This document shows, piece after piece, positions 3 to 14,218 of a stretch of 14,218 nt of DNA. The notes under the pieces were generated by a model. That model saw only the letters and a list, made by a program, of their open reading frames with translations. It did not search any database and had not been told where the DNA came from. The position numbers and the translations under genes were made by a program. Numbering within the stretch: position 1 is the stretch's first letter; each line of letters starts with the position of its first letter. The stretch comes from a virus (Duplodnaviria > Heunggongvirae > Uroviricota > Caudoviricetes): the IMG/VR virus record IMGVR_UViG_2529292920_000009; one strand, written 5' to 3'.

Positions 3-1817
3 TTACATGTCTTTGAAGGCATCGCCATTTTTAATGCGCTGAAAACACATGGTGCGTCCATTACCGTTTATGTCGACGGTGTGGCGGCGTCAATGGCGTC
101 GGTCATTGCGATGGTGGGAAACCCGGTCATTATGCCGGAAAACACCTTCATGATGATTCATAAACCATTTGGCTTTACGGGCGGTGATGCGGAGGACATG
201 CGCACCTATGCCGACCTGCTCGATAAGGTTGAGGCGGTTCTGTTACCCGCTTATGCACAGAAAACCGGGAAAACCACCGATGAAATTGCTGCCATGCTGG
301 CGGATGAGACCTGGATGTCCGGTGCCGAATGTCTGGCACATGGATTTGCTGATCAGGTGACGCCAGCCGTTAAGGCAATGGCATGTATTCAGTCAAAACG
401 TACAGAGGAATTTAAAAAGATGCCGGAATCCATTCGAAACATGATTACTCCGCCACGCAACAGTGCTCCATGCGTACAGGATGATGAACCTGCAGCCTCC
501 CGGACGCCAGTGCAGGCAGCAGCACCCGTGGTGGATGAAAACAGTATCCGTGCGCAGGTACTGGCAGAGCAAAAAGCGCGTGTAAACGGTATTAATGATC
601 TGTTTGCCATGTTTGGCGGGCGTTATCAGACGCTGCAGGCTCAGTGTCTTGCCGATCCTGAATGTTCGCTGGAGCAGGCCCGCGAAAAGTTGTTGAACGA
701 GATGGGGCGCGAGTCCACGCCATCCAATAAAAATACCCCGGCTCATATTTATGCCGGTAACGGTAATTTTGTGGGGGACGGGATCCGCCAGGCGCTGATG
801 GCGCGTGCCGGATTTGAAAAAACCGAACGTGATAATGTCTACAACGGGATGACCCTGCGTGAATATGCCCGTATGTCACTGACTGAACGGGGTATTGGGG
901 TTTCCAGTTATAACCCGATGCAGATGGTCGGTGCGGCGTTCACACACAGTACGTCTGACTTCGGTAATATTCTGCTGGATGTTGCGAACAAAGCCATTCT
1001 GCAGGGCTGGGAAGATGCCCCTGAAACCTATGAACAGTGGACGCGGAAAGGTCAGTTGTCTGATTTTAAAATTGCCCATCGTGTGGGTATGGGGGGCTTC
1101 AGTGCTCTGCGTCAGGTGCGTGAAGGGGCGGAATATAAATACGTCACCACCGGAGATAAACAGGCCACTATTGCACTGGCGACCTATGGCGAGCTGTTCA
1201 GTATCACCCGTCAGGCCATTATCAATGATGATCTGAATATGCTGACCGATGTCCCGATGAAACTGGGCCGTGCGGCGAAATCCACTATTGCCGATCTGGT
1301 TTATGCCATTCTGACGTCTAACCCGAAAATCTCCACAGATAATGTAAGTCTGTTCGATAAAGCGAAACATGCAAACGTACTGGAGAGCGCTGCAATGGAC
1401 GTGGCATCGCTGGATAAAGCCCGCCAGTTGATGCGCGTTCAGAAAGAGGGGGAGCGTCATCTGAATATTCGTCCTGCGTTCGTACTGGTACCGACGGCGA
1501 TGGAGTCTGTTGCTAACCAGGTCATTCGCTCCTCAAGTGTCAAGGGGGCTGACATTAACGCCGGTATTATTAACCCGGTGAAAGATTTTGCGACCGTTAT
1601 TGCAGAGCCTCGTCTTGATGATAACAGCCAGACCACCTTCTACCTGGCTGCGTCCAAAGGCTCCGATACGATTGAAGTGGCTTATCTCAACGGTGTGGAT
1701 ACGCCATATATTGATCAGATGGAGGGCTTCAGTGTGGATGGCGTGACAACGAAAGTGCGTATTGACGCCGGTGTCGCGCCAGTTGATCACCGCGGTCTGG
1801 TGAAATGTACGGCGTAA
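3..1817 (+). CDS. Prohead protease (ClpP/S14-like) fused to major capsid protein; 5' end lies upstream of the window
   Basis: Frame 3 is open from the first base of the window to TAA at 1815-1817, so the listed ORF at 81 is an internal start. The N-terminal part carries a ClpP-like motif (GVAASMAS, then MMIHKP); the C-terminal ~400 aa has the size and position of a major capsid protein immediately upstream of head-tail genes. Family assignment is from memory of E. coli prophage protease-capsid fusions. Confidence 0.85.
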   Translation, partial: LHVFEGIAIFNALKTHGASITVYVDGVAASMASVIAMVGNPVIMPENTFMMIHKPFGFTGGDAEDMRTYADLLDKVEAVLLPAYAQKTGKTTDEIAAMLADETWMSGAECLAHGFADQVTPAVKAMACIQSKRTEEFKKMPESIRNMITPPRNSAPCVQDDEPAASRTPVQAAAPVVDENSIRAQVLAEQKARVNGINDLFAMFGGRYQTLQAQCLADPECSLEQAREKLLNEMGRESTPSNKNTPAHIYAGNGNFVGDGIRQALMARAGFEKTERDNVYNGMTLREYARMSLTERGIGVSSYNPMQMVGAAFTHSTSDFGNILLDVANKAILQGWEDAPETYEQWTRKGQLSDFKIAHRVGMGGFSALRQVREGAEYKYVTTGDKQATIALATYGELFSITRQAIINDDLNMLTDVPMKLGRAAKSTIADLVYAILTSNPKISTDNVSLFDKAKHANVLESAAMDVASLDKARQLMRVQKEGERHLNIRPAFVLVPTAMESVANQVIRSSSVKGADINAGIINPVKDFATVIAEPRLDDNSQTTFYLAASKGSDTIEVAYLNGVDTPYIDQMEGFSVDGVTTKVRIDAGVAPVDHRGLVKCTA

Positions 1818-1840
1818 ACGTCGCAGACAACAACTCTGAT

Positions 1841-1860
1841 GGCCCGTAAGGGCTTTTTTT
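1841..1860 (+). terminator. Weak terminator-like hairpin after the capsid gene (GGCCC-GTAA-GGGCT stem with GNRA loop, then T7)
   Basis: Seen directly: 4-5 bp GC stem with GTAA tetraloop at 1841-1854 followed by TTTTTTT at 1854-1860, 24 nt after the capsid stop. The stem is short, so this may only attenuate. Confidence 0.35.
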
Positions 1861-1903
1861 GTACCTGAAATCAGCCCCTGAACGGGGCTGTGCGGAGACA
1901 GTT

Positions 1904-2227
1904 ATGGCAAAGAATTTTGTAGAAGAAGGAAAAACGGTGGCGATTGTTGCCAGTGCAGCCATCAGCAGCGGAGATCTGGTGCAGGTGGGTGATGTTTTTG
2001 CGGTGGCGCTGACCGATATTCCACAGGGTGAAACAGGCGACGGCATGACCGAAGGTGTGTTTATCCTGCCTAAGCTGAAAACGGATGACATGAAAACGGG
2101 TAAGAAGGTTTATCTGAAGTCCGGAAAAGTTCAGCTGACTAACAGCGGCTCTGATCCGCTGGTCGGGGTTGTCTGGGCAGATGCCGGAACCAGTGCAGAA
2201 GAAGTGCCGGTAAAACTCAATGTCTGA
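1904..2227 (+). CDS. Small phage head protein (DUF2190-like; possible head decoration/stabilisation protein)
   Basis: ATG at 1904 is preceded by GGAG at 1894-1897 (6 nt spacing); the ORF-track start at 1859 is an upstream TTG inside the hairpin region. Product MAKNFVEEGKTVAIV... sits directly after the capsid gene. Family assignment is from memory. Confidence 0.7.
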   Translation: MAKNFVEEGKTVAIVASAAISSGDLVQVGDVFAVALTDIPQGETGDGMTEGVFILPKLKTDDMKTGKKVYLKSGKVQLTNSGSDPLVGVVWADAGTSAEEVPVKLNV

Positions 2228-2495
2228 TCCCTTTTCTCGGCTGGCAGCGCGTATGGATGCGATCACGGTCAGAAAGATGGGAAAGACAGCCTCGATTAAT
2301 GATGTCGATATGGCTGTGATCCCGGGCGAAACACTGGCAGAGCTGAATGCTCTGTCCGGACCTGCTGTCTCTCTGGTGGTGTTTTCTTTGGGATACCGCC
2401 CACGGCGCGGGGATCGCGTTGTTTATGACGGACAACATTGGACGGTCACACGGCATGAACGCTTTAACGGTAAGCCAATGATCTTTATTGAGTAA
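2220..2495 (+). CDS. Putative head-tail joining/adaptor protein (FII-like position)
   Basis: ATG at 2220 overlaps the upstream stop (ATGTCTGA), indicating translational coupling; 91 aa, located between head genes and the Z homologue. Function is inferred from position and size. Confidence 0.6.
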   Translation: MSDPFSRLAARMDAITVRKMGKTASINDVDMAVIPGETLAELNALSGPAVSLVVFSLGYRPRRGDRVVYDGQHWTVTRHERFNGKPMIFIE

Positions 2496-2506
2496 AGAGG
2501 TGTGGG

Positions 2507-3085
2507 ATGAAGGGGCTTGAGAATGCCATCCGCAATCTGAACAGCCTTGATACCCGTATGGTGCCACAGGCCAGCGCATGGGCGATAAACCGTGTGGCAC
2601 AGAAAGCGGTCTCGGTTGCCACCCGGCAGGTTGCCGGGAATACCGTTGCGGGAGATAACCAGGTGAAAGGGATACCCCTGAAACTGGTACGTCAGCGTGT
2701 CCGGGTGTTTAAAGCCAGTCCGTCAGGAAAAATGACGGCCAGGATCCGCGTCAACCGGGGCAATCTGCCCGCCATTAAGCTGGGGACAGCCCGGGTCAGA
2801 CTGGCCCGGCGTGGTGGAAAACTGCAGTACCGTGGCAGTGTGCTGAAGGTGGGTAAATATCTTTTCCGGGATGCGTTTATTCAGCAACTGGCGAATGGTC
2901 GCTGGCATGTGATGCGGCGTATTGATGGCAAAAATCGTTACCCCATTGATGTGGTGAAAATCCCGTTGTCCGGACCGCTGACACAGGCATTTGAAGATGC
3001 CCGCGACCGCATCATTGCTGCGGAAATGCCGAAACAGTTGGGTTATGCACTGAAACAACAACTGAGGTTATGGCTGACCCGATGA
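2507..3085 (+). CDS. Z: Minor tail protein Z (tail completion), lambda gpZ-like
   Basis: ATG at 2507 with AAGAGG at 2495-2500. 192 aa, the same length I recall for lambda gpZ, with a recognisable gpZ-like C-terminal region (NGRWHVMRRIDGKNRYPIDVVKIP...GYAL). Confidence 0.85.
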   Translation: MKGLENAIRNLNSLDTRMVPQASAWAINRVAQKAVSVATRQVAGNTVAGDNQVKGIPLKLVRQRVRVFKASPSGKMTARIRVNRGNLPAIKLGTARVRLARRGGKLQYRGSVLKVGKYLFRDAFIQQLANGRWHVMRRIDGKNRYPIDVVKIPLSGPLTQAFEDARDRIIAAEMPKQLGYALKQQLRLWLTR

Positions 3086-3483
3086 ACCGACATACACAAA
3101 TCCGCCAGGTCGTACTGGCACGCCTTCGGGAACAGTGTGGAGACAGCGCCACGTTTTTTGACGGGCTTCCGGCATTTGTTGATGCGCAGGAACTGCCTGC
3201 CGTGTCGGTGTGGCTGAGTGATGCTCAGTACACCGGAAAAATGACGGATGAAGATGACTGGCAGGCTGTTCTGCATATTGCTGTCTTCATCCGGGCACAA
3301 GCACCGGATTCAGAGCTGGATATGTGGATGGAGAGCACCATTTTCCCGGCCCTGAATGATGTACCGGCACTTTCCGGACTCATCGACACCCTGATCCCAC
3401 TCGGTTTTAACTATCAACGTGATAATGAGATGGCCACCTGGGCGATGGCGGAAATCACGTACCAGATCACGTACACGAATTAA
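3070..3483 (+). CDS. U: Tail terminator protein U, lambda gpU-like
   Basis: Product contains ATFFDG, PAVSVWL and a C-terminal ITYxITY region resembling lambda gpU as I recall it. Start is ambiguous: ATG 3070 (GAGG only 2 nt upstream) or ATG 3082 (aligns better with the lambda N-terminus MKHTELR). Overlaps the Z stop at 3083-3085. Confidence 0.8.
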   Translation: MADPMNRHTQIRQVVLARLREQCGDSATFFDGLPAFVDAQELPAVSVWLSDAQYTGKMTDEDDWQAVLHIAVFIRAQAPDSELDMWMESTIFPALNDVPALSGLIDTLIPLGFNYQRDNEMATWAMAEITYQITYTN

Positions 3484-3493
3484 GGAGGTGGTA

Positions 3494-4237
3494 ATGACCA
3501 CACCAAATCCACTGGCAAAAACGAAAGGTGCGGGAACGACGTTCTGGATGTATACCGGCAACGGCGACGCATTTGCGAACCCTTTGTCGGACACTGACTG
3601 GCTGCGTCTTGCGATGGTGAAGGATCTGCAACCTGGCGAAATGACCGCTGATGCAGAAGATGACACTTATCTCGATGATGAAGATGCAGACTGGAAAACG
3701 ACAACCCAGGGGCAGAAATCCGTTGGTGATACTTCGGCGACGCTGGCCTGGCGTCCGGGTGACAGCGGGCAGAAAAAACTGGTTCAGTTGTTCGACTCCG
3801 GTGAAGTCTGCGCGTTTCGTATCAAATATCCCAACGGCACTGTTGATGTTTTCCGTGGCTGGCTGAGCTCACTGGGTAAAACCATTGCCTCAAAAGACGT
3901 GATGACCCGCACAGTGAAAATCAGCGGTGTGGGGCGTCCGTATCTGGCAGAGGAGGGCACTGAAACTGTGGGCGTTACCGGGCTGACGGTGGCACCGGCA
4001 TCTGCCAGTGTAAAAGTGGGAGCAACCACCACGCTGACCTTTACAGTAAAACCTGACGGAGCCAGTGACAAAGCGATCAGTGTGCATTCGACAGATCCAC
4101 AGACTGCCACGGTGACCCTGAACGGGCTTGTGGCCACGGTGAAAGGCGTGAAGCAGGGCAGTGTCAGCATTGTGGGCATGACTTCTGACGGCGATTTTGT
4201 GGCAGTGGCTGCGGTGGCTGTCAGCGCCGCAGGTTAA
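3494..4237 (+). CDS. V: Major tail protein V with C-terminal Ig-like (Big_2-type) domain, lambda gpV-like
   Basis: Strong SD AAGGAGGT at 3482-3489 and ATG at 3494; the ORF-track start at 3419 is upstream and overlaps U. N-terminus MTTPNPLAKTKGAGTTFWMY...NPLSD...DLQPGEMTA...YLDDEDADW matches lambda gpV from memory; the C-terminal ~90 aa is an Ig-like segment. Confidence 0.9.
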   Translation: MTTPNPLAKTKGAGTTFWMYTGNGDAFANPLSDTDWLRLAMVKDLQPGEMTADAEDDTYLDDEDADWKTTTQGQKSVGDTSATLAWRPGDSGQKKLVQLFDSGEVCAFRIKYPNGTVDVFRGWLSSLGKTIASKDVMTRTVKISGVGRPYLAEEGTETVGVTGLTVAPASASVKVGATTTLTFTVKPDGASDKAISVHSTDPQTATVTLNGLVATVKGVKQGSVSIVGMTSDGDFVAVAAVAVSAAG

Positions 4238-4257
4238 CAGGACGATACTCATCATTT

Positions 4258-4282
4258 GCCCCGGTTATCCGGGGCTTTTTTT
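4258..4282 (+). terminator. Rho-independent terminator or attenuator between V and G
   Basis: Seen directly: perfect 7-bp GC stem GCCCCGG (4258-4264), loop TTAT, CCGGGGC (4269-4275), then TTTTTTT (4276-4282), 20 nt after the V stop. Confidence 0.55.
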
Positions 4283-4294
4283 CAGGTGGAGAAC

Positions 4295-4684
4295 ATGATG
4301 TTTCTGAAACAGGGCACGTTTAATTATGAAAAGCAGTCCGTGGTGCTCAGTGAGCTGTCCGGGCTGCAGAGAATTGAATATCTGGCGTTTGTTCAGCAGC
4401 GAACGGCAAAGTTTGATGCCGAAGAGGGAGAACTGCCGGAGGCTGAACGACAGATTGCTTTTCTGCGGATGGGGATGGATATCAATGCCTGGCTGGTTTC
4501 CCGCTCACAGTGGAATGCGGATCAGTCTAAGGATGTAGAGACGCTTTGCGCATCCGTTATTACAACATGGTCGTATGATGCCCTGGGTGCGGGGGCGGAG
4601 ATGGTTCTGTCGCTGAGCGGTATGGGGACCATTGATAATGCCGGGGATGATGAGCATGAGGCGCTGACGCCGGAAAAGTCCTGA
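4295..4684 (+). CDS. G: Tail assembly chaperone G, lambda gpG-like
   Basis: Tandem ATG at 4295/4298 with GGTGGAG at 4285-4291; MFLK...VLSELSGLQRIEYLAF resembles the lambda gpG N-terminus (MFLK...TLSELSALQRIEHLA, from memory). Stop TGA at 4682-4684. Confidence 0.85.
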   Translation: MMFLKQGTFNYEKQSVVLSELSGLQRIEYLAFVQQRTAKFDAEEGELPEAERQIAFLRMGMDINAWLVSRSQWNADQSKDVETLCASVITTWSYDALGAGAEMVLSLSGMGTIDNAGDDEHEALTPEKS

Positions 4685-5022
4685 CGCGGGAAATGCAGTT
4701 TGTCATGCGGCTTGCCCGGGAGTTCCGGCGGGCAGACTGGCGGCGGATGCTGTCGGAAATGTCGGCCACTGAGCTTGGTGAGTGGGGCGATTATTTCCGG
4801 ATGCAGAGCTTCAGTGATGTGTGGATGGATGCGCAGTTTGCCTCGCTGAAGGCATTGATCGTGAGAATGGTGTCCGGCAGCAGTGATGCTGCGGTGGCTG
4901 ATTTCAGCCTTTTACCGGAAGAGAACGGGATACCGGAGCGAACGGACGAAGAACTGATGCATCTTGGGGAAGGTATTTCCGGAGGTGTGCGTTATGGACC
5001 AGATAGCCAACCTGGTCATTGA
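4672..5022 (+). CDS. T: T portion of the tail assembly chaperone G-T fusion, expected to be made by -1 programmed frameshift from G
   Basis: The -1 frame relative to G is open from 4660 (upstream TGA at 4657-4659) to TGA at 5020-5022 and overlaps the last codons of G (GAA AAG TCC TGA). This is the conserved lambdoid G/G-T arrangement; the exact slip point is inferred. Confidence 0.7.
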   Translation, partial: GKVLTREMQFVMRLAREFRRADWRRMLSEMSATELGEWGDYFRMQSFSDVWMDAQFASLKALIVRMVSGSSDAAVADFSLLPEENGIPERTDEELMHLGEGISGGVRYGPDSQPGH

Positions 5023-5647
5023 TTTGGGGATTGATGCGGCAGAGTTTAAAAATGAAATCCCCCGTATCAAAAACCTTCTGAATGGTGCAGCCAGCGATGC
5101 AGAACGGTCTTCTGCCCGTATGCAGCGTTTTATGGAGCGTCAGACTCAGGCCGCCCGGCAGACAACGCAGGCGGCTTCTTCGGCTGCAACAGCCGCATCC
5201 GTCCATGCGCAGACGGTGGAGAAGAACGCACAGGCTCATGAACGCATGGCCCGCGAGGTGGAGAAAACCCGCCAGCGCATGGAGGCGCTGAGCCAGAAAA
5301 TGCGCGAGGAACAGGCGCAGGCCATGGCTCTGGCGGAGGCTCAGGATAAAGCGGCTGCTGCGTTTTATCGTCAGATTGACAGTGTGAAACAGGCCAGTGC
5401 GGGGCTGCAGGAATTACAGCGTATTCAGCAGCAGATCCGACAGGCCAGAAACAGTGGCGGGATTGGTCAGCAGGATTATCTGGCGCTGATTTCTGAGGTT
5501 ACGGCGAAAACCCGTGTTCTTACACAGGCTGAGGAAGAGGGTACCCGACAGAAAGTGGCGTTTATCCGTCAGCTTAAAGAGCAGGCAACCCGCCAGAATC
5601 TTTCATCTTCTGAGTTGCTTCGTGCTAAGGCTGCCCAGCTGGGGTAA
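4994..5647 (+). CDS. H: Tape-measure protein H, N-terminal fragment (ends at in-frame TAA)
   Basis: ATG at 4994 with GGAGG at 4980-4984; overlaps the end of T by 29 nt. I preferred this start over the upstream ATG at 4964 because of the SD and the lambda-like N-terminus. Confidence 0.75.
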   Translation: MDQIANLVIDLGIDAAEFKNEIPRIKNLLNGAASDAERSSARMQRFMERQTQAARQTTQAASSAATAASVHAQTVEKNAQAHERMAREVEKTRQRMEALSQKMREEQAQAMALAEAQDKAAAAFYRQIDSVKQASAGLQELQRIQQQIRQARNSGGIGQQDYLALISEVTAKTRVLTQAEEEGTRQKVAFIRQLKEQATRQNLSSSELLRAKAAQLG

Positions 5648-5650
5648 GCA

Positions 5651-6673
5651 GTGCTGCAGAAGTGTATATCCGCAAAAATGGAGCAGGCAGGAAAAGCCAC
5701 GCATTCGCTGGGTCTGAAAAGTGCAGCGGCCCGCCAGGAGATAGGCGTTCTGATAGGTGAACTGGCCCGCGGCAATTTAGGGGCGCTGAGGGGATCCGGG
5801 ATAACGCTGGCTAACCGTGCCGGATGGATAGACACACTGATGTCACCGAAAGGCATGATGCTGGGCGGGGTTATTGGCGGTATTGCCGCAGCTGTCTATG
5901 GTCTGGGTAAAGCCTGGTATGACGGTCAGAAGGAGGGGGAAGAATTTAACCGCCAGCTGTCGCTGACGGGGCATTATGCCGGAGTCACTGCCGGGCAGCT
6001 GTGGACGCTCAGTCGTGCTATTTCCGGGAATGGTATCACGCAACATGCTGCAGCCGGTGCGCTGGCTCAGGTGGTGGGGAGTGGTGCATTTCGTGGAAAC
6101 GATATCGGTATGGTGGCGAGAGCTGCCGCACAGATGGAGCGATCGGTTGGCCAGTCGGTCAGCGATACCATAAGTCAGTTTAAGCGGCTGAAGGATGATC
6201 CTGTAAATGCCGCGAAGGCTCTGGACAATGAGCTGCATTTTCTTACTGCCACTCAGCTTGAGCAGATACGCGTCCTTGGGGAACAGGGGCGGTCCAGTGA
6301 TGCGGCACGGATAGCCATGTCTGCACTGGCAGAGGAAACCGGTCGGCGTACTGCGGATATTGATAATAACCTCAATGCGCTGGGCAGTACGCTGAAGTAT
6401 CTGTCTGATTTATGGAGTCGTTTCTGGGATGCGGCCATGAATATTGGTCGTGAAGACTCGCTGGATGAACAGATTTCCGCTTTACAGGAGAAAGTGTCGC
6501 GGGCGAAAAGACTCCCCTGGACGGCATCATCCTCTCAGGTTGAGTACGATCAGCAGCGTCTTAACGAGCTTCAGGAAAAAAACGCCAGAAGGATTTGCAG
6601 GATGCAAAAGAGCAGGCAGAGCGGAATTATCAGGAGCAACAGAAACGCCGTAATGCTGAAAATGCTGCACTGA
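5651..6673 (+). CDS. H: Tape-measure protein H, middle fragment (same frame as the N-terminal fragment)
   Basis: Reading frame resumes one codon after the TAA (GTG at 5651); it contains a hydrophobic Gly-rich segment (GMMLGGVIGGIAAAVYGLG) typical of tape-measure proteins; the frame is lost at the A7 tract near 6576-6582. Confidence 0.7.
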   Translation: MLQKCISAKMEQAGKATHSLGLKSAAARQEIGVLIGELARGNLGALRGSGITLANRAGWIDTLMSPKGMMLGGVIGGIAAAVYGLGKAWYDGQKEGEEFNRQLSLTGHYAGVTAGQLWTLSRAISGNGITQHAAAGALAQVVGSGAFRGNDIGMVARAAAQMERSVGQSVSDTISQFKRLKDDPVNAAKALDNELHFLTATQLEQIRVLGEQGRSSDAARIAMSALAEETGRRTADIDNNLNALGSTLKYLSDLWSRFWDAAMNIGREDSLDEQISALQEKVSRAKRLPWTASSSQVEYDQQRLNELQEKNARRICRMQKSRQSGIIRSNRNAVMLKMLH

Positions 6674-8049
6674 ACCGGATGAATGAAACGGAAGCAGCAC
6701 GACATCAGCGTGAAATTGCGCGTATTAATGCCATGCAGTACGCCGATCAGACTGTCAGGGATGCGGCGATACAACGTGAAAATGAACGTTACGAGAAAGC
6801 CCTGGCATCCGGTAAGAAAAAAACACGCGAAACCCGTAATGATGAGGCCACCCGGTTATTGCTGCAGTACAGTCAGCAACAGGCACAGGTGGAAGGACAG
6901 ATTGCTGCTGCCAGACAGTCAGCAGGCATTGCCACGGAAAGGATGACAGAAGCGCATAAACAGCTTCTGGCTCTGCAGCAGCGCATCAGCGACCTGGACG
7001 GGAAAAAACTGACGGCAGATGAAAAGAGTGTGCTGGCCCGTAAAGATGAACTGATTCTGGCACTGACGCTGCTGGATGTAAAACAGCAGGAGCTTCAGAA
7101 ACAGACGGCACTCAACGAGCTGAAGAAAAAAACAATTCAGCTGACCAGTCAACTGGCTGAAGAAGAGCGTGCTCAGCGTCAACAACATAATCTGGATATC
7201 GCCACGGTGGGTATGGGTGATCAGCAGCGGCAGCGATATCAGGTACAACTGAGTCTTCGTCAGAAATACCAGCAACAGCTGGAGCAGTTGAGGCGGGATA
7301 GTGAGCAGAAAGGGACATATAACACGGATGACTACAGAAAGGCCGAGCAGGCGCTGACGGAGAGCCTGAACCGACAACTGAATGAGAATCGCCGTTACTG
7401 GCAACAGCTTGAAATTGCTCAGGGTAACTGGAAAAACGGAGTCCTGCGTGCACTCCAGAATGTCACTGAGAATGCGGATAACACAGCCTGGACAGTGGAA
7501 CAGTTGTTCACGTCTGCGTTCAGTAGCATGAGTGACTGGCTGGCGACATTCTGTACTACAGGCAAACTCAATTTCAAATCTTTTACTTCTTCTGTGCTGT
7601 CAGATATGTCCAGAATCATGGCTCAGATAGCTTTAATGAAAGCGGTAAAAGGCATTGCTTCCGCGCTGCCTTTTGATTTTGTAGCCAATGCTGATGGCGG
7701 TGTTTATCAGTCGGCTGATTTGAGTCGCTACAGTGGCACGGTGGTTAACCGTCCGACGTTTTTTGCTTTTGCAAAAGGCGCGGGTGTGATGGGGGAAGCG
7801 GGACCTGAAGCCATTCTGCCATTGCGTCGTGGTGCTGACGGTAAGCTGGGGGGTGTGGCGGATATTGGGGGTTCAGGTATGGCGATGTTTTCCCCGCAGT
7901 ACAACATCGAGATCAATAACGATGGCACGAACGGGCAGATAGGTCCGGCTGCCCTGAAGGCGGTTTATGACCTCGGGAAAAAAGCGGCAGCGGACTTTAT
8001 GCAACAGCAGGCCCGTGATGGTGGTCGGTTAAGTGGAGCATATCGGTAA
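6595..8049 (+). CDS. H: Tape-measure protein H, C-terminal fragment (-1 frame)
   Basis: This frame is open from 6565; the ORF-track start at 6595 is a TTG. Gln/Glu/Arg-rich coiled-coil-like sequence ending in the conserved gpH C-terminus; stop TAA at 8047-8049 overlaps the M start (TAATG). Confidence 0.75.
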   Translation: MQDAKEQAERNYQEQQKRRNAENAALNRMNETEAARHQREIARINAMQYADQTVRDAAIQRENERYEKALASGKKKTRETRNDEATRLLLQYSQQQAQVEGQIAAARQSAGIATERMTEAHKQLLALQQRISDLDGKKLTADEKSVLARKDELILALTLLDVKQQELQKQTALNELKKKTIQLTSQLAEEERAQRQQHNLDIATVGMGDQQRQRYQVQLSLRQKYQQQLEQLRRDSEQKGTYNTDDYRKAEQALTESLNRQLNENRRYWQQLEIAQGNWKNGVLRALQNVTENADNTAWTVEQLFTSAFSSMSDWLATFCTTGKLNFKSFTSSVLSDMSRIMAQIALMKAVKGIASALPFDFVANADGGVYQSADLSRYSGTVVNRPTFFAFAKGAGVMGEAGPEAILPLRRGADGKLGGVADIGGSGMAMFSPQYNIEINNDGTNGQIGPAALKAVYDLGKKAAADFMQQQARDGGRLSGAYR

Positions 8050-8378
8050 TGGAGACGTTTCACTGGAAAGTGCGCCCGGATATGAATGTGGTATCAGAGC
8101 CGAAAGTGGTGACAGTGAAGCTGGGCGATGGTTATGAACAGCGTCGTGCGGCGGGACTGAATAACCAGTTGTCGACTTACAGCGTGACGATACGTGTTCG
8201 TAAATGTGAACACCCATCTTTAAAAGCCTTTCTGGAACGGCACGGTGGCGTCCGCGCATTTCAGTGGACGCCACCTTATGACTGGAAACCGATTAGGGTG
8301 GTTTGTCGTAAATGGTCGGCAAGCGTGGGGGCGCTGTGGGTAACCATAACGGCAGATTTTGAACAGGTCGTGGCATAG
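8049..8378 (+). CDS. M: Minor tail protein M, lambda gpM-like
   Basis: 109 aa; METFHWKVRPDM...GDGYEQR...LNNQLSTYSV...WTPPYDWK...FEQVV matches lambda gpM from memory; start overlaps the H stop. Confidence 0.9.
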   Translation: METFHWKVRPDMNVVSEPKVVTVKLGDGYEQRRAAGLNNQLSTYSVTIRVRKCEHPSLKAFLERHGGVRAFQWTPPYDWKPIRVVCRKWSASVGALWVTITADFEQVVA

Positions 8379-8387
8379 GAGGCTCTG

Positions 8388-9086
8388 ATGCAGGATATTC
8401 CACAGGAAACACATCATGAGACGACACGCCTCACTCAGTCAGCCCAGGTGGTGCTCTGGGAAATCGATCTGACAGAGGTCGGTGGTGAACGTTATTTTTT
8501 CTGTAATGAGCAGAACGAAAAAGGTGAGCCGGTTACCTGGCAGGGGCGGCAGTATCAGGCATACCCCATTCAGGGGACAGGATTTGAACTGAACGGCAAG
8601 GGCAGTGCTGCCCGTCCGACACTGACGGTTTCTAACCTGCACGGCATGGTCACGGGGATGGCGGAAGACCTGCAGAGTCTGGTCGGCGGAACGGTGGTCA
8701 GGCGTAAGGTTTACGCCCGTTTTCTGGATGCGGTGAACTTCGTCAACGGAAACAGCGACGCCGATCCGGAGCAGGAGGTGATCAGCCGCTGGCGCATCGA
8801 GCAGTGCAGCGAACTGAGTGCGGTCAGTGCCTCCTTTGTACTGTCCACGCCGACGGAAACGGATGGTGCTGTTTTTCCGGGGCGTATCATGCTGGCCAAC
8901 ACCTGCACCTGGACCTATCGCGGTGATGAGTGTGGTTATCACGGTCCGGCTGTCGCGGATGAATATGACCAGCCGACGTCCGATATCACGAAGGATAAAT
9001 GCAGCAAATGCCTGAGCGGCTGTAAGTTTCGCAATAACGTCGGCAACTTTGGCGGCTTCCTTTCCATTAACAAACTTTCGCAGTAA
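8388..9086 (+). CDS. L: Minor tail protein L, lambda gpL-like
   Basis: 232 aa; ATG at 8388 with GGAG at 8377-8380. Sequence (VVLWEIDLTEVGGERYFFCNEQNEKGEPVTWQGRQYQ...CSKCLSGCKFRNNVGNFGGF) is almost identical to lambda gpL as I recall it, including the C-terminal Cys cluster. Confidence 0.95.
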   Translation: MQDIPQETHHETTRLTQSAQVVLWEIDLTEVGGERYFFCNEQNEKGEPVTWQGRQYQAYPIQGTGFELNGKGSAARPTLTVSNLHGMVTGMAEDLQSLVGGTVVRRKVYARFLDAVNFVNGNSDADPEQEVISRWRIEQCSELSAVSASFVLSTPTETDGAVFPGRIMLANTCTWTYRGDECGYHGPAVADEYDQPTSDITKDKCSKCLSGCKFRNNVGNFGGFLSINKLSQ

Positions 9087-9090
9087 TCCC

Positions 9091-9834
9091 ATGACACAGA
9101 CAGAATCAGAGATTCTGGCGCACGCCCGGCGATGTGCGCCAGCGGAGTCGTGCGGCTTCGTGGTAAGCACGCCGGAGGGGGAAAGATATTTCCCCTGCGT
9201 GAATATCTCCGGTGAGCCGGAGGCGTATTTCCGTATGTCGCCGGAAGACTGGCTGCAGGCAGAAATGCAGGGTGAGGTGGTGGCGCTGGTCCACAGCCAC
9301 CCCGCTGGTCTGCCCTGGCTGAGTGAGGCCGACCGGCGGCTGCAGGTGCAGAGTGATTTGCCGTGGTGGCTGGTCTGCCGGGGGACAATTCATAAGTTCC
9401 GCTGTGTGCCGCATCTCACCGGGCGGCGCTTTGAGCACGGGGTGACGGACTGTTACACGCTGTTCCGGGATGCTTATCATCTGGCGGGGATTGAGATGCC
9501 GGATTTTCATCGCGAGGATGACTGGTGGCGTCACGGCCAGAATCTCTATCTGGATAATCTGGAGGCAACGGGGCTGTATCAGGTGCCGTTGTCAGCGGCG
9601 CAGCCGGGCGATGTGCTGCTGTGCTGTTTTGGTTCATCGGTGCCGAATCATGCCGCCATTTACTGCGGCGACGGCGAGCTGCTGCACCATATTCCTGAAC
9701 AACTGAGTAAACGAGAGAGGTACACCGACAAATGGCAGCGACGCACACACTCCCTCTGGCGTCACCGGGCATGGCACGCATCTGCCTTTACGGGGATTTA
9801 CAACGATTTGGCCGCCGCATCGACCTTCGTGTAA
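9091..9834 (+). CDS. K: Tail tip assembly protein K, lambda gpK-like, with JAMM/MPN and NlpC/P60-type motifs
   Basis: ATG at 9091, 5 nt after the L stop; N-terminus MTQTESEILAHARRCAP. An exact HxHx7Sx2D JAMM motif (HSHPAGLPWLSEAD) is encoded at 9292-9333, followed by a Cys (GVTDCYTLF) and His (PNHAAIYCGDG) pair characteristic of an NlpC/P60-type domain. Confidence 0.9.
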   Translation: MTQTESEILAHARRCAPAESCGFVVSTPEGERYFPCVNISGEPEAYFRMSPEDWLQAEMQGEVVALVHSHPAGLPWLSEADRRLQVQSDLPWWLVCRGTIHKFRCVPHLTGRRFEHGVTDCYTLFRDAYHLAGIEMPDFHREDDWWRHGQNLYLDNLEATGLYQVPLSAAQPGDVLLCCFGSSVPNHAAIYCGDGELLHHIPEQLSKRERYTDKWQRRTHSLWRHRAWHASAFTGIYNDLAAASTFV

Positions 9835-10379
9835 AAACGGGGGCTGAAGCCATCCGGGCGTTGTCCACACAGCTCCCGGCGTTTCGTCAGAAACTGAATG
9901 ACGGCTGGTATCAGGTGCGCATTGCCGGGCGTGATGCAGGTGAAACCGAATTATCTGCCCGTCTTAATGAGCCGCTGGCAAATGGTGCCGTGATCCACAT
10001 CGTGCCGCATCTGGCGGGAGCTAAAAGTGGCGGTGTGTTTCAGGTGGTGCTGGGGGCGGCGCTGATTGCGGTGGCATGGTGGAACCCTGTGGGCTGGCTG
10101 GGTGCCGCGGCTGTATCGGGCATGTATGCGGCAGGGGCCAGTATGATCCTGGGTGGTGTGGCCCAGATGCTGGCACCGAAAGCCCGGACGCCCACAGCGA
10201 CCAGCACGGATAACGGTAAGCAGAACACCTATTTCTCATCACTGGATAACATGGTTGCCCAGGGCAATGTTCTGCCTGTTCTGTACGGTGAAATGCGCGT
10301 GGGGTCTCGTGTGGTTTCTCAGGAGATCAGCACGGCAGATGAAGGGGACGGTGGTCAGGTTGTGGTGATTGGCCGCTGA
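9732..10379 (+). CDS. I: Tail tip assembly protein I, lambda gpI-like
   Basis: MAATHTLPLASPGMARICLYGDLQRFGRRIDLRV... and the C-terminus NVLPVLYGEMRVGSRVVSQEISTADEGDGG resemble lambda gpI from memory; the start overlaps the 3' end of K by 103 nt, as K and I do in lambda. Confidence 0.9.
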   Translation: MAATHTLPLASPGMARICLYGDLQRFGRRIDLRVKTGAEAIRALSTQLPAFRQKLNDGWYQVRIAGRDAGETELSARLNEPLANGAVIHIVPHLAGAKSGGVFQVVLGAALIAVAWWNPVGWLGAAAVSGMYAAGASMILGGVAQMLAPKARTPTATSTDNGKQNTYFSSLDNMVAQGNVLPVLYGEMRVGSRVVSQEISTADEGDGGQVVVIGR

Positions 10380-10397
10380 TGCAAAATATTTCATGTG

Positions 10398-10425
10398 AAA
10401 CCGCCTCCGGGCGGTTTTGTCGTTT
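10398..10425 (+). promoter_or_regulatory. Hairpin between I and J (8-bp stem AAACCGCC/GGCGGTTT, loop TCCG) with a T-rich tail; possible attenuator or RNA processing site
   Basis: Seen directly at 10398-10417, followed by TGTCGTTT; lies 19 nt after the I stop and just before the J Shine-Dalgarno (GGAG at 10428-10431). Confidence 0.35.
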
Positions 10426-10439
10426 ATGGAGCATAACGA

Positions 10440-12407
10440 ATGGGCAAAGGAAGCAGTAAGGGGCATACCCCGCGCGAAGCGAAGGACAACCTGAAGTCCA
10501 CGCAACTGCTGAGTGTGATTGATGCCATCAGCGAAGGGCCGATTGAAGGTCCGGTGGATGGATTAAAAAGCGTGCTGCTGAACAGTACGCCGGTGCTGGA
10601 CAGTGAAGGTAATACCAACATCTCCGGTGTCACGGTGGTGTTCCGGGCCGGTGAGCAGGAGCAGACACCGCCGGAGGGATTTGAATCCTCCGGCTCTGAG
10701 ACGGTGCTGGGTACGGAAGTGAAATACGACACGCCGATCACCCGCACCATCACGTCGGCAAACATCGATCGTCTGCGCTTTACTTTCGGTGTGCAGGCAC
10801 TGGTGGAAACCACCTCTAAGGGGGACCGGAATCCGTCGGAAGTCCGCCTGCTGGTTCAGATACAGCGTAACGGTGGCTGGGTGACGGAAAAAGACATCAC
10901 CATTAAAGGCAAAACCACCTCACAGTATCTGGCATCGGTGGTGGTGGGTAACCTGCCGCCGCGCCCGTTCAATATCCGGATGCGCAGGATGACGCCGGAC
11001 AGCACCACAGACCAGCTGCAGAACAAAACGCTCTGGTCGTCATACACCGAAATCATCGATGTGAAACAGTGCTACCCGAACACGGCACTGGTCGGCGTAC
11101 AGGTGGATTCGGAGCAGTTCGGCAGCCAGCAGGTGAGCCGTAATTATCATCTGCGCGGGCGTATTCTGCAGGTGCCGTCGAACTATAACCCGCAGACGCG
11201 GCAATACAGCGGTATCTGGGACGGAACGTTTAAGCCAGCATACAGCAATAACATGGCCTGGTGTCTGTGGGATATGCTGACCCATCCACGCTACGGCATG
11301 GGGAAACGTCTTGGTGCGGCGGATGTGGACAAATGGGCGCTGTATGTCATCGGCCAGTACTGCGACCAGTCAGTGCCGGACGGCTTTGGCGGCACGGAGC
11401 CGCGCATCACCTGTAATGCGTACCTGACCACACAGCGCAAGGCGTGGGATGTGCTCAGTGATTTCTGCTCGGCGATGCGCTGTATGCCGGTATGGAACGG
11501 GCAGACGCTGACGTTCGTGCAGGACCGACCGTCGGATAAGGTGTGGACCTATAACCGCAGTAATGTGGTGATGCCGGATGATGGCGCGCCGTTCCGCTAC
11601 AGCTTCAGCGCCCTGAAAGACCGCCATAATGCCGTTGAGGTGAACTGGATTGACCCGAACAACGGCTGGGAGACGGCGACAGAGCTTGTGGAGGATACGC
11701 AGGCCATTGCCCGTTACGGTCGTAACGTCACGAAGATGGATGCTTTTGGCTGTACCAGCCGGGGGCAGGCACACCGCGCCGGGCTGTGGCTGATTAAAAC
11801 AGAACTGCTGGAAACGCAGACCGTGGACTTCAGCGTGGGCGCAGAAGGGCTTCGCCATGTGCCGGGCGATGTCATTGAAATCTGTGATGATGACTATGCC
11901 GGTATCAGCATCGGCGGGCGCGTGCTGGCGGTAAACAGCCAGACCCGGACGCTGACGCTCGACCGTGAAATCACGCTGCCATCCTCCGGTACCACGCTGA
12001 TAAGCCAGGTTGACGGAAGTGGCAATCCGGTCAGCGTGGAGGTTCAGTCCGTCACCGACGGCGTGAAGGTAAAAGTGAGCCGTGTTCCTGACGGTGTTGC
12101 CGGATACAGCGTATGGGGGCTGAAGCTGCCGACGCTGCGCCAGCGACTGTTCCGCTGCGTGAGTATCCGTGAGAACGACGACGGCACGTATGCCATCACC
12201 GCCGTGCAGCATGTGCCGGAAAAAGAGGCCATCGTGGATAACGGGGCGCACTTTGACGGCGAACAGAGTGGCACGGTGAACGGTGTCACGCCGCCAGCAG
12301 TGCAGCACCTGACCGCAGAAGTCACCGCAGACAGCGGGGAATACCAGGTGCTGGCGCGCTGGGACACGCCGAAGGTGGTGAAGGGGGGAGCTTTATGCTT
12401 CGCCTGA
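10440..12407 (+). CDS. J: Host-specificity protein J, N-terminal fragment
   Basis: ATG at 10440 with GGAG at 10428-10431; [54 protein letters not shown]... matches lambda J; the frame ends 7 codons after the G6 tract. Confidence 0.85.
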
Positions 12408-13810
12408 CCGTGGCAGCGGATGACGGCAGTGAGCGGCTGGTCAGCACGGCCCGGACGACGGAAACCACATACCGCTTCAGGCAGCTGGCGTTGGGGCGTT
12501 ACACGCTGACAGTCCGGGCGGTAAATGCCCGGGGACAGCAGGGCGATCCGGCGTCGGTATCGTTCCGGATTGCCGCACCGGCAGCGCCGTCACAGATTGA
12601 GCTGACGCCGGGCTATTTTCAGATCACCGCCACGCCGCATCTTGCGGTTTATGATCCGACGGTACAGTTTGAGTTCTGGTTTTCGGAAAAGCGGATTACC
12701 GATATCAGGCAGGTTGAAACCAGCGCGCGCTATCTTGGCACGGGGATGTACTGGATAGCCGCCAGTATCAATATCAAACCGGGCCATGATTATTACTTTT
12801 ATATCCGCAGTGTGAACACCGTTGGCAAATCGGCATTCGTGGAGGCTGTCGGTCAGGCGAGCGATGATGCGGAAGGTTACCTGGATTTTTTCAAAGGCCA
12901 GATAACCGAATCCCATCTCGGCAAGGAGCTGCTGGAAAAAGTCGAGCTGACGGAGGATAACGCCAGCAAACTGGAGGAGTTTTCGAAAGAGTGGCAGGAC
13001 GCTAACGATAAGTGGAATGCCATGTGGGGCGTCAAAATTGAGCAGACCAAAGACGGCAAACATTATGTCGCGGGTATTGGCCTCAGCATGGAGGACACGG
13101 AAGAAGGCAAGCTGAGCCAGTTTCTGGTTGCCGCTAACCGTATCGCGTTTATTGACCCGGCAAACGGGAATGAAACGCCGATGTTTGTGGCGCAGGGCAA
13201 TCAGATATTTATGAACGACGTGTTCCTGAAGCGCCTGACGGCCCCGACCATTACCAGTGGTGGAAATCCACCGGCATTTTCCCTGACATCAGACGGAAAG
13301 CTGACCGCTAAAAATGCGGATATCAGTGGTAGAGTGAATGCGAACGCCGGGACGCTCAACAATGTCACGGTAAATGAAAACTGTACGATTAAGGGCATGC
13401 TGGAGGCGACTCAGGTCAGAGGTGACTTCGTTAAAGCTGTATCCAAATCATTTCCGAAACAGGCTGGTACGTGGGGTAACACGGAAACACCAAACGGGAC
13501 GGTTACAGTCACCATCAGCGATGATCATAACTTTGACCGTCAAATCATTATTCCGCCCATTATCTTTAACGGAATAGCGTATAGCTATCCGGGAAGTGGT
13601 AATAACCCGGGAGGTACAAGTTACACGGGTTATGGTTTCGAAGTTCGCAAAAACGGTGTATTAATCGCATCCAGAGAAACTAAAGGGGCCATTCCCGGTA
13701 GTTACAGTGCGGTTATTGATATGCCGAGTGGCAGGGGAGCGTCACTCTGGAGTTTAAGGTTTTCCATAAAGGCAATCAGTGGGCAGGTAATATCACCGAC
13801 TGTACGGTGA
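12395..13810 (+). CDS. J: Host-specificity protein J, C-terminal fragment (-1 frame relative to the N-terminal fragment)
   Basis: Continues the J sequence ([28 protein letters not shown]..., fibronectin-III-like region); the last ~150 aa look diverged from lambda and are more AT-rich; the frame ends at TGA 13808-13810 after the G4 tract. Confidence 0.8.
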
Positions 13811-13872
13811 TTGTGACCAAAAAAGCCGCTTCCGGCATCAGTATTCGTTGAAATTGTTATAACCCATATAAG

Positions 13873-13899: not shown

Positions 13900-14013
13900 G
13901 CAGAAAAGCGAGAGGTAATTATGCGTAAAGGTAACCGGCTCATTTAAACCGTCTGGTCTGTTTCCTCCGGCTCTACAAAAATAATGTCCATCATTTTTAA
14001 TGGACACTATCGT

Positions 14014-14218
14014 ATGAAACACCGGACCTGGATCACTGAAGCTTTACGTCTTCACTTTGAAGAACATTTACCCCGGGTTGTGGCCGGGCGTCGCCTGGGT
14101 GTACCAAAATCAACAGTTTGTAGTATGTTCGTGCGCTTTCGGAGAGCTGGCCTTTCGTGGCCTTTGCCCGCAGGCATGTCGGAGCAGGAACTTGATGCCT
14201 GCCTTTACGGACAATTTT
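14014..14218 (+). CDS. HTH-domain ORF, 3' end beyond the window; possibly the N-terminus of an IS transposase (family not determined)
   Basis: ATG at 14014 opens a frame that runs to the window edge (68 codons). It encodes a helix-turn-helix-like segment (GRRLGVPKSTVCSMFVRFRRAGL) of the kind seen at transposase N-termini. There is no clear SD, and a 7-bp inverted repeat lies immediately upstream (13985-14006). Confidence 0.4.
   Translation, partial: MKHRTWITEALRLHFEEHLPRVVAGRRLGVPKSTVCSMFVRFRRAGLSWPLPAGMSEQELDACLYGQF

Follow-up and report, generated by a model that had tools for sequence, protein, structure and literature searches.

Organization of the locus

The window, which denotes the whole stretch of 14,218 nucleotides analysed here, corresponds to the entire contig AIEZ01000007.1 of E. 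coli DEC1E (assembly GCA_000249135.2), whose accession falls within the range of the DECA collection (diarrhoeagenic E. coli). DEC1 strains are assumed here to be O55:H6 members of the EPEC1 lineage, and the prophage is presumably PP4. The gene content is that of the head-tail module of a lambda-like prophage, comprising a prohead protease/capsid fusion, tail proteins, G/T, the tape measure H, minor tail proteins (one of the L family), a C40 peptidase, a tail assembly protein of the Lambda_tail_I family, J and the start of lom. The order of tape measure, minor tail proteins, C40 peptidase, tail assembly protein, J and lom is lambda-like. The features discussed below are the following.

4994-8049, plus strand: tape-measure gene H, broken, with three homopolymer-length changes
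10440-12407, plus strand: J N-terminal pseudogene fragment, an ORF of 655 aa, from the lambda gpJ alignment and tblastn (frame 3)
12380-13768, plus strand: central section of J in the next frame, matching aa 648-1108 of the intact protein, from tblastn
12383-12388, plus strand: G6 tract, the site of a 1-nt loss; relatives have GGGGGTG or GGGGGGG
13732-13851, plus strand: last 38-39 codons of J in the third frame, ending at the natural stop TGA (13849-13851)
13734-13739, plus strand: second J frameshift site, GGGGAAGC in relatives and GGGGAGC in the window (one A lost)
13921-14218, plus strand: lom start codon followed by an IS66-family element, with tnpA from ~13984 to the contig end

Reading frames of J

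The first-pass annotation had placed a split of J at the run GGGGGG, which is read directly from the window sequence at 12383-12388 (+), and proposed to check whether an alignment with related J proteins changes frame there. With the J of E. coli 55989 (intact, 1137 aa) as tblastn query against the window, residues 1-649 were recovered in frame 3 (10440-12386), residues 648-1108 in frame 2 (12380-13768) and residues 1099-1137 in frame 1 (13732-13848). The intact protein crosses the junction and switches frame exactly at the G tract, which bears out the proposed split.

The fragment at 10440-12407, annotated in DEC1E as EHU30981.1, carries 651 J residues followed by 4 out-of-frame residues (ALCF A) and a premature stop TGA at 12405-12407. 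Residues 1-651 of lambda gpJ (PDB 8iyk) align end to end with residues 1-651 of this fragment (1479 bits) and none align beyond. The middle part, annotated EHU30982.1 'hypothetical protein', appears as a mechanical ORF at 12395-13810 that starts from the internal Met of SFMLRL. The G6 run by itself is unremarkable, as the window holds 3 such runs against ~8.6 expected from base composition; the meaningful signal is the frame change.

Insertion of one base into the G tract in silico fused the first two parts of J. The earlier suggestion that one extra G restores the lambda-like reading was right locally, but not for the full J: the one-base repair alone gave a 1123-residue protein whose C-terminus is scrambled by the frameshift at 13738, which the first-pass annotation had not noted. 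When the two lesions were corrected in silico, J was 1137 aa long and contained FNIII-A_GpJ, Phage-tail_3, Ig_J, Ig_J_second, Phage_Tail_Tip and Ig_GpJ_C in order (all six Pfam matches with E<=2e-26), which is the complete domain order, as in lambda. Of the two breaks, one (near residue 650) interrupts the first Ig-like domain (Ig_J, 610-714) and the other (near residue 1100) the receptor-binding domain at the C-terminus (Ig_GpJ_C, 1001-1136).

Lambda J is a single ORF, whereas the window J lacks a single continuous frame of ~1130-1240 aa and is split over three frames at 12383-12388 and 13738. The gene belongs to the lambda gpJ / TipJ family as a pseudogene and not as a functional member.

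Authenticity of the one-base deletion

Matches covering the region come from ~200 phage records and from over 4000 complete genomes of E. coli. In every row checked among the matches listed, the match of the relatives was one base longer than the window query, and gpJ is a single continuous CDS in each phage or E. coli relative fetched, which favours a simple indel, as originally proposed, over two separate genes. An exact 65-mer with the G6 tract was present in 4 of 5426 complete E. coli genomes, all of them assemblies of EPEC O127:H6 strain E2348/69, and these four assemblies differ in length and in the coordinates of the 65-mer. The G6 allele was also found in two E2348-like IMG/VR contigs (L024 and L025). 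Exact-pattern scans of metagenome and species-representative genome collections gave no match to the G6 pattern. Over 12282-12624 the window does not differ from E2348/69 at any position; this 343-nt haplotype has variants missing from the more distant J genes compared and is near-exact in only three to four other complete genomes.

An error of sequencing or assembly in the DEC1E draft, with the real gene intact, is a very improbable explanation of the missing base. The suspicion has some ground, as the window is a 14.2-kb draft contig with repeat ends and shows 1-nt indels at four other sites, each in or next to a homopolymer, three of which (5641, 5674, 13738) are missing from complete E. 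coli genomes. The same G6 in the same 343-nt haplotype nevertheless recurs in the four complete E2348/69 assemblies and the two E2348-like contigs, and RefSeq marks the E2348/69 gpJ as frameshifted. Since G6 is present in independent E2348/69 assemblies, it is not a read error; the identical haplotype at 12282-12624, together with 99.8-100% identity between the window and E2348/69 over window positions 1000-9000, demonstrates that the deletion is real and shared by descent. Sequencing error is rejected in this way at the G tract only.

The gpJ pseudogene of E2348/69 is E2348C_RS28990 (NC_011601.1, 1078256-1081970), described in RefSeq as 'phage attachment tail tip protein J, frameshifted'. The public annotation of this sister strain therefore already flags the J lesion, which is an ordinary, known pseudogene. 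Besides the G6 allele and the identical haplotype, E2348/69 shares with the window the same head-tail module, in which the tape-measure gene is likewise annotated 'frameshifted'. The E2348/69 prophage (NC_011601.1) adjoins torT and has the type III effector genes nleB2, nleC and nleD.

Alleles at the G tract

Three alleles were distinguished at the position of the tract.

GGGGGTG: Lys-Gly-Val-Ser, gpJ intact; the common allele, in ~2000 complete genomes
GGGGGGG (G7): Lys-Gly-Gly-Ser, gpJ intact; 14 complete genomes with the exact 66-mer, plus A25
GGGGGG (G6): frameshift, pseudogene; the four E2348/69 assemblies, the window, L023, L024 and L025

The Gly-Val pair in relatives is encoded by GGGGGTG or GGCGTG, and lambda itself is taken here to read KGVSFL, that is, Gly-Val without a G run. 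The G7 66-mer occurs on several J backgrounds; seven of its 14 genomes were fetched, and gpJ was annotated intact in all seven, which carry five different gpJ proteins. The peptide predicted by the first-pass annotation after insertion of one G therefore exists in intact natural genes, and A25, with G7, has exactly that peptide.

As the majority allele is Gly-Val (GGGGGTG or GGCGTG), the lost base could be a T rather than a G. The nearest intact haplotypes compared within the block 12282-12624 were three. A25, the best overall match for window 12100-12700, is one SNP from the window in the shared block and has G7; JNE23-011 (one SNP) and 2015C-4136CT1 (two SNPs) both have GGGGGTG. Because two of these three haplotypes carry GGGGGTG, direct loss of the T is equally parsimonious, and nearest-haplotype parsimony is ambiguous between T loss and G loss from G7.

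Two further considerations bear on the choice. Contraction of a 7-base homopolymer by one unit is a much likelier event than deletion of a unique base. In addition, the prophage contig L023 (IMGVR_UViG_2874945390_000010, 797-823) carries G6 on a clearly different local haplotype, and its haplotype neighbours carry G7. One of these is a second prophage in the same genome (L029, contig 000002, 3520-3547), which has a similar local haplotype, G7 and a J that is intact at this site; from these comparisons, the G6 of L023 is probably an independent G7-to-G6 loss. Because the homopolymer is prone to slippage and the L023 allele lies amid G7 neighbours, slippage from G7 to G6 is the likeliest route and is favoured about two to one over direct T loss.

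A real deletion in which GGGGGTG lost its T directly, with the G6 run as a by-product, is accordingly considered possible but rather unlikely. GGGGGTG is by far the commonest allele (~2000 genomes), two of the three nearest haplotypes carry it, and parsimony ranks a single step from GTG equal to a single step from G7. These points are set against the G7 of A25, which is among the nearest intact relatives, against the established readiness of homopolymer contraction, and against the second G6 allele on a haplotype surrounded by G7 alleles.

Possible recoding and phase variation

A functional split J was considered in two forms: low-level -1 ribosomal frameshifting on G_GGG_GGA, which would yield a full-length product reading through ...KGGSFML..., or production of separate halves, the second by restart at ATG 12395, followed by their assembly. 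The zero frame AAG GGG GGA formally fits X_XXY_YYZ (12382-12388 plus A). ATG 12395 sits 6 nt past the purine-rich G run, which resembles a Shine-Dalgarno sequence (GGGGGGAG), and it overlaps the stop at 12405-12407. The heptamer is, however, a formal match only, a candidate slippery site that was itself created by the deletion, and the segment 12382-12470 folded with a minimum free energy of -30.4 kcal/mol, compared with a mean of -30.65 for shuffled sequences (z=0.08), that is, no stable stimulatory structure downstream.

The two-frame arrangement is not conserved either, as a continuous ORF was found in every matching phage or genome relative inspected. G6 was seen only in the E2348/69-type prophages and L023, which amounts to one lineage plus one probable independent loss against thousands of relatives with a continuous ORF. 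Moreover, the break lies within the Ig_J domain (aa 610-714) and not between domains, J has a second frameshift, and H is broken too, both in the window and, elsewhere in the gene, in E2348/69. Programmed frameshifting was rejected on the grounds that the RNA downstream folds no more stably than shuffled sequence and that the arrangement lacks conservation, and a functional split in either form is given hardly any probability. Restart at ATG 12395 is conceivable, and its product would consist of half an Ig domain joined to a frameshifted receptor-binding end.

A phase-variable (contingency) switch, in which changes in the length of the G tract would turn J reversibly on and off, is similarly remote. 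In its favour, G7 (on) and G6 (off) both exist, and G6 apparently arose at least twice; against it, G6 is rare and fixed in its lineage, with all four E2348/69 assemblies in agreement, and most alleles have no homopolymer above five. A pattern scan of IMG/VR found no match to a G8 tract, G6 was not found in the metagenome or species-representative scans, and the off allele is accompanied by other irreversible lesions. A variant, in which the G7 tract of a minority of lambdoid J genes is a recurrent slippage hot spot and G6 may stay leaky through -1 frameshifting or revert to G7, is credited with little more than that; if true, it would make the tract a leaky or reversible switch on tail-tip production.

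Other lesions and mosaicism

Lesions were called against E2348/69, 55989 and phage cdtI. In H, a change of G5 to G4 at 5641 leads to a TAA at 5645-5647, a change of A4 to A5 at 5674, 33 nt later, restores the frame, and a change of A8 to A7 at 6577 shifts the remainder of the gene. The 5641 and 5674 alleles were not found in complete E. coli genomes, and at 6577 the window departs from all three of these references. The 13738 allele of J was present in 0 of 5426 complete E. coli genomes. At the end of the module, lom is cut ~10 nt after its ATG (13921) by the IS66-family element.

Two side observations concern this insertion. Positions 4944-5231 of L024, after its J-lom region, are 100% identical to window 13931-14218 and represent the same IS element, and a similar insertion is present in a different prophage of strain AUSMDU00014361.

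With two J frameshifts, three H indels including a stop and the IS66-family insertion in lom, the module is that of a defective prophage, and the presence of several lesions in the same tail module indicates that the module is decaying. Part of this apparent decay could be sequencing error, because the window-only indels all lie in or beside homopolymers, lack a match in complete genomes and come from a 2012 draft contig. This doubt leaves the G-tract lesion unaffected.

E2348/69 differs from the window in its remaining lesions. Its J has a second frame change near residue 880 (NC_011601.1 prophage, L012, 14720), its H has a 1-nt deletion at the equivalent of window 7105 (L012, 8750), and its lom is intact. 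The C-terminal part of its J is also a different mosaic variant from ~12857. Outside the near-identical 1000-9000 stretch, the two sequences share ~98% identity (~2% diverged) over 9100-12280 and are unrelated over 12857-13242, where the window resembles 55989. This mosaic structure of J and the genes immediately upstream may result from recombination between prophages, or possibly from a draft assembly in which co-resident prophages were collapsed.

Probable decay of the tail-tip gene

The best explanation of the locus, held with a probability of about 0.9, is that a genuine, vertically inherited 1-base deletion has made J a pseudogene in the lambda-like prophage of DEC1E, as an instance of ordinary prophage decay. 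The proposed course of events would begin with a T-to-G change that turned the common GGGGGTG, encoding Gly-Val, into the G7 allele. The immediate ancestor was most likely an intact G7 gene reading Lys-Gly-Gly-Ser, from which one G would have been lost by replication slippage. The deletion would then disrupt the first Ig-like domain. Since translation would end four codons after it, no full-length J would be made, and a virion depending on this copy of J would be left without a functional tail tip. The tail module would subsequently decay, presumably under relaxed selection.

Damage of this kind has precedent, as frame-shift mutations, deletions and IS insertions are common in the lambdoid prophages of attaching-effacing E. 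coli (PMC2669165). The Sp prophages of O157 Sakai resemble that of the window in being lambdoid and effector-carrying with damaged morphogenesis genes, although that study dealt with a strain and prophages different from those of DEC1E (PMC2669165). In O157, defective prophages were mobilised or complemented with help from co-resident prophages (PMC2669165). If the prophage described here still moves effector genes, it would similarly have to borrow the tail proteins of co-resident prophages.

The value of this reading of the locus is mostly one of annotation: EHU30981.1 and EHU30982.1 are fragments of one J pseudogene and not two genes. The common lesion is, in addition, a small marker of shared prophage descent between DEC1E and E2348/69, and the allele series illustrates how a Val-to-Gly codon change can generate a slippage-prone G7 run.

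Further frame changes in J were observed in the IMG/VR contigs with the G6 allele. L024 has one more at ~2283-2296, near residue 440, and L025 one more at ~593, near residue 66; both may be draft errors or further decay. The J of L023 also shows a further frame change, near residue 789.
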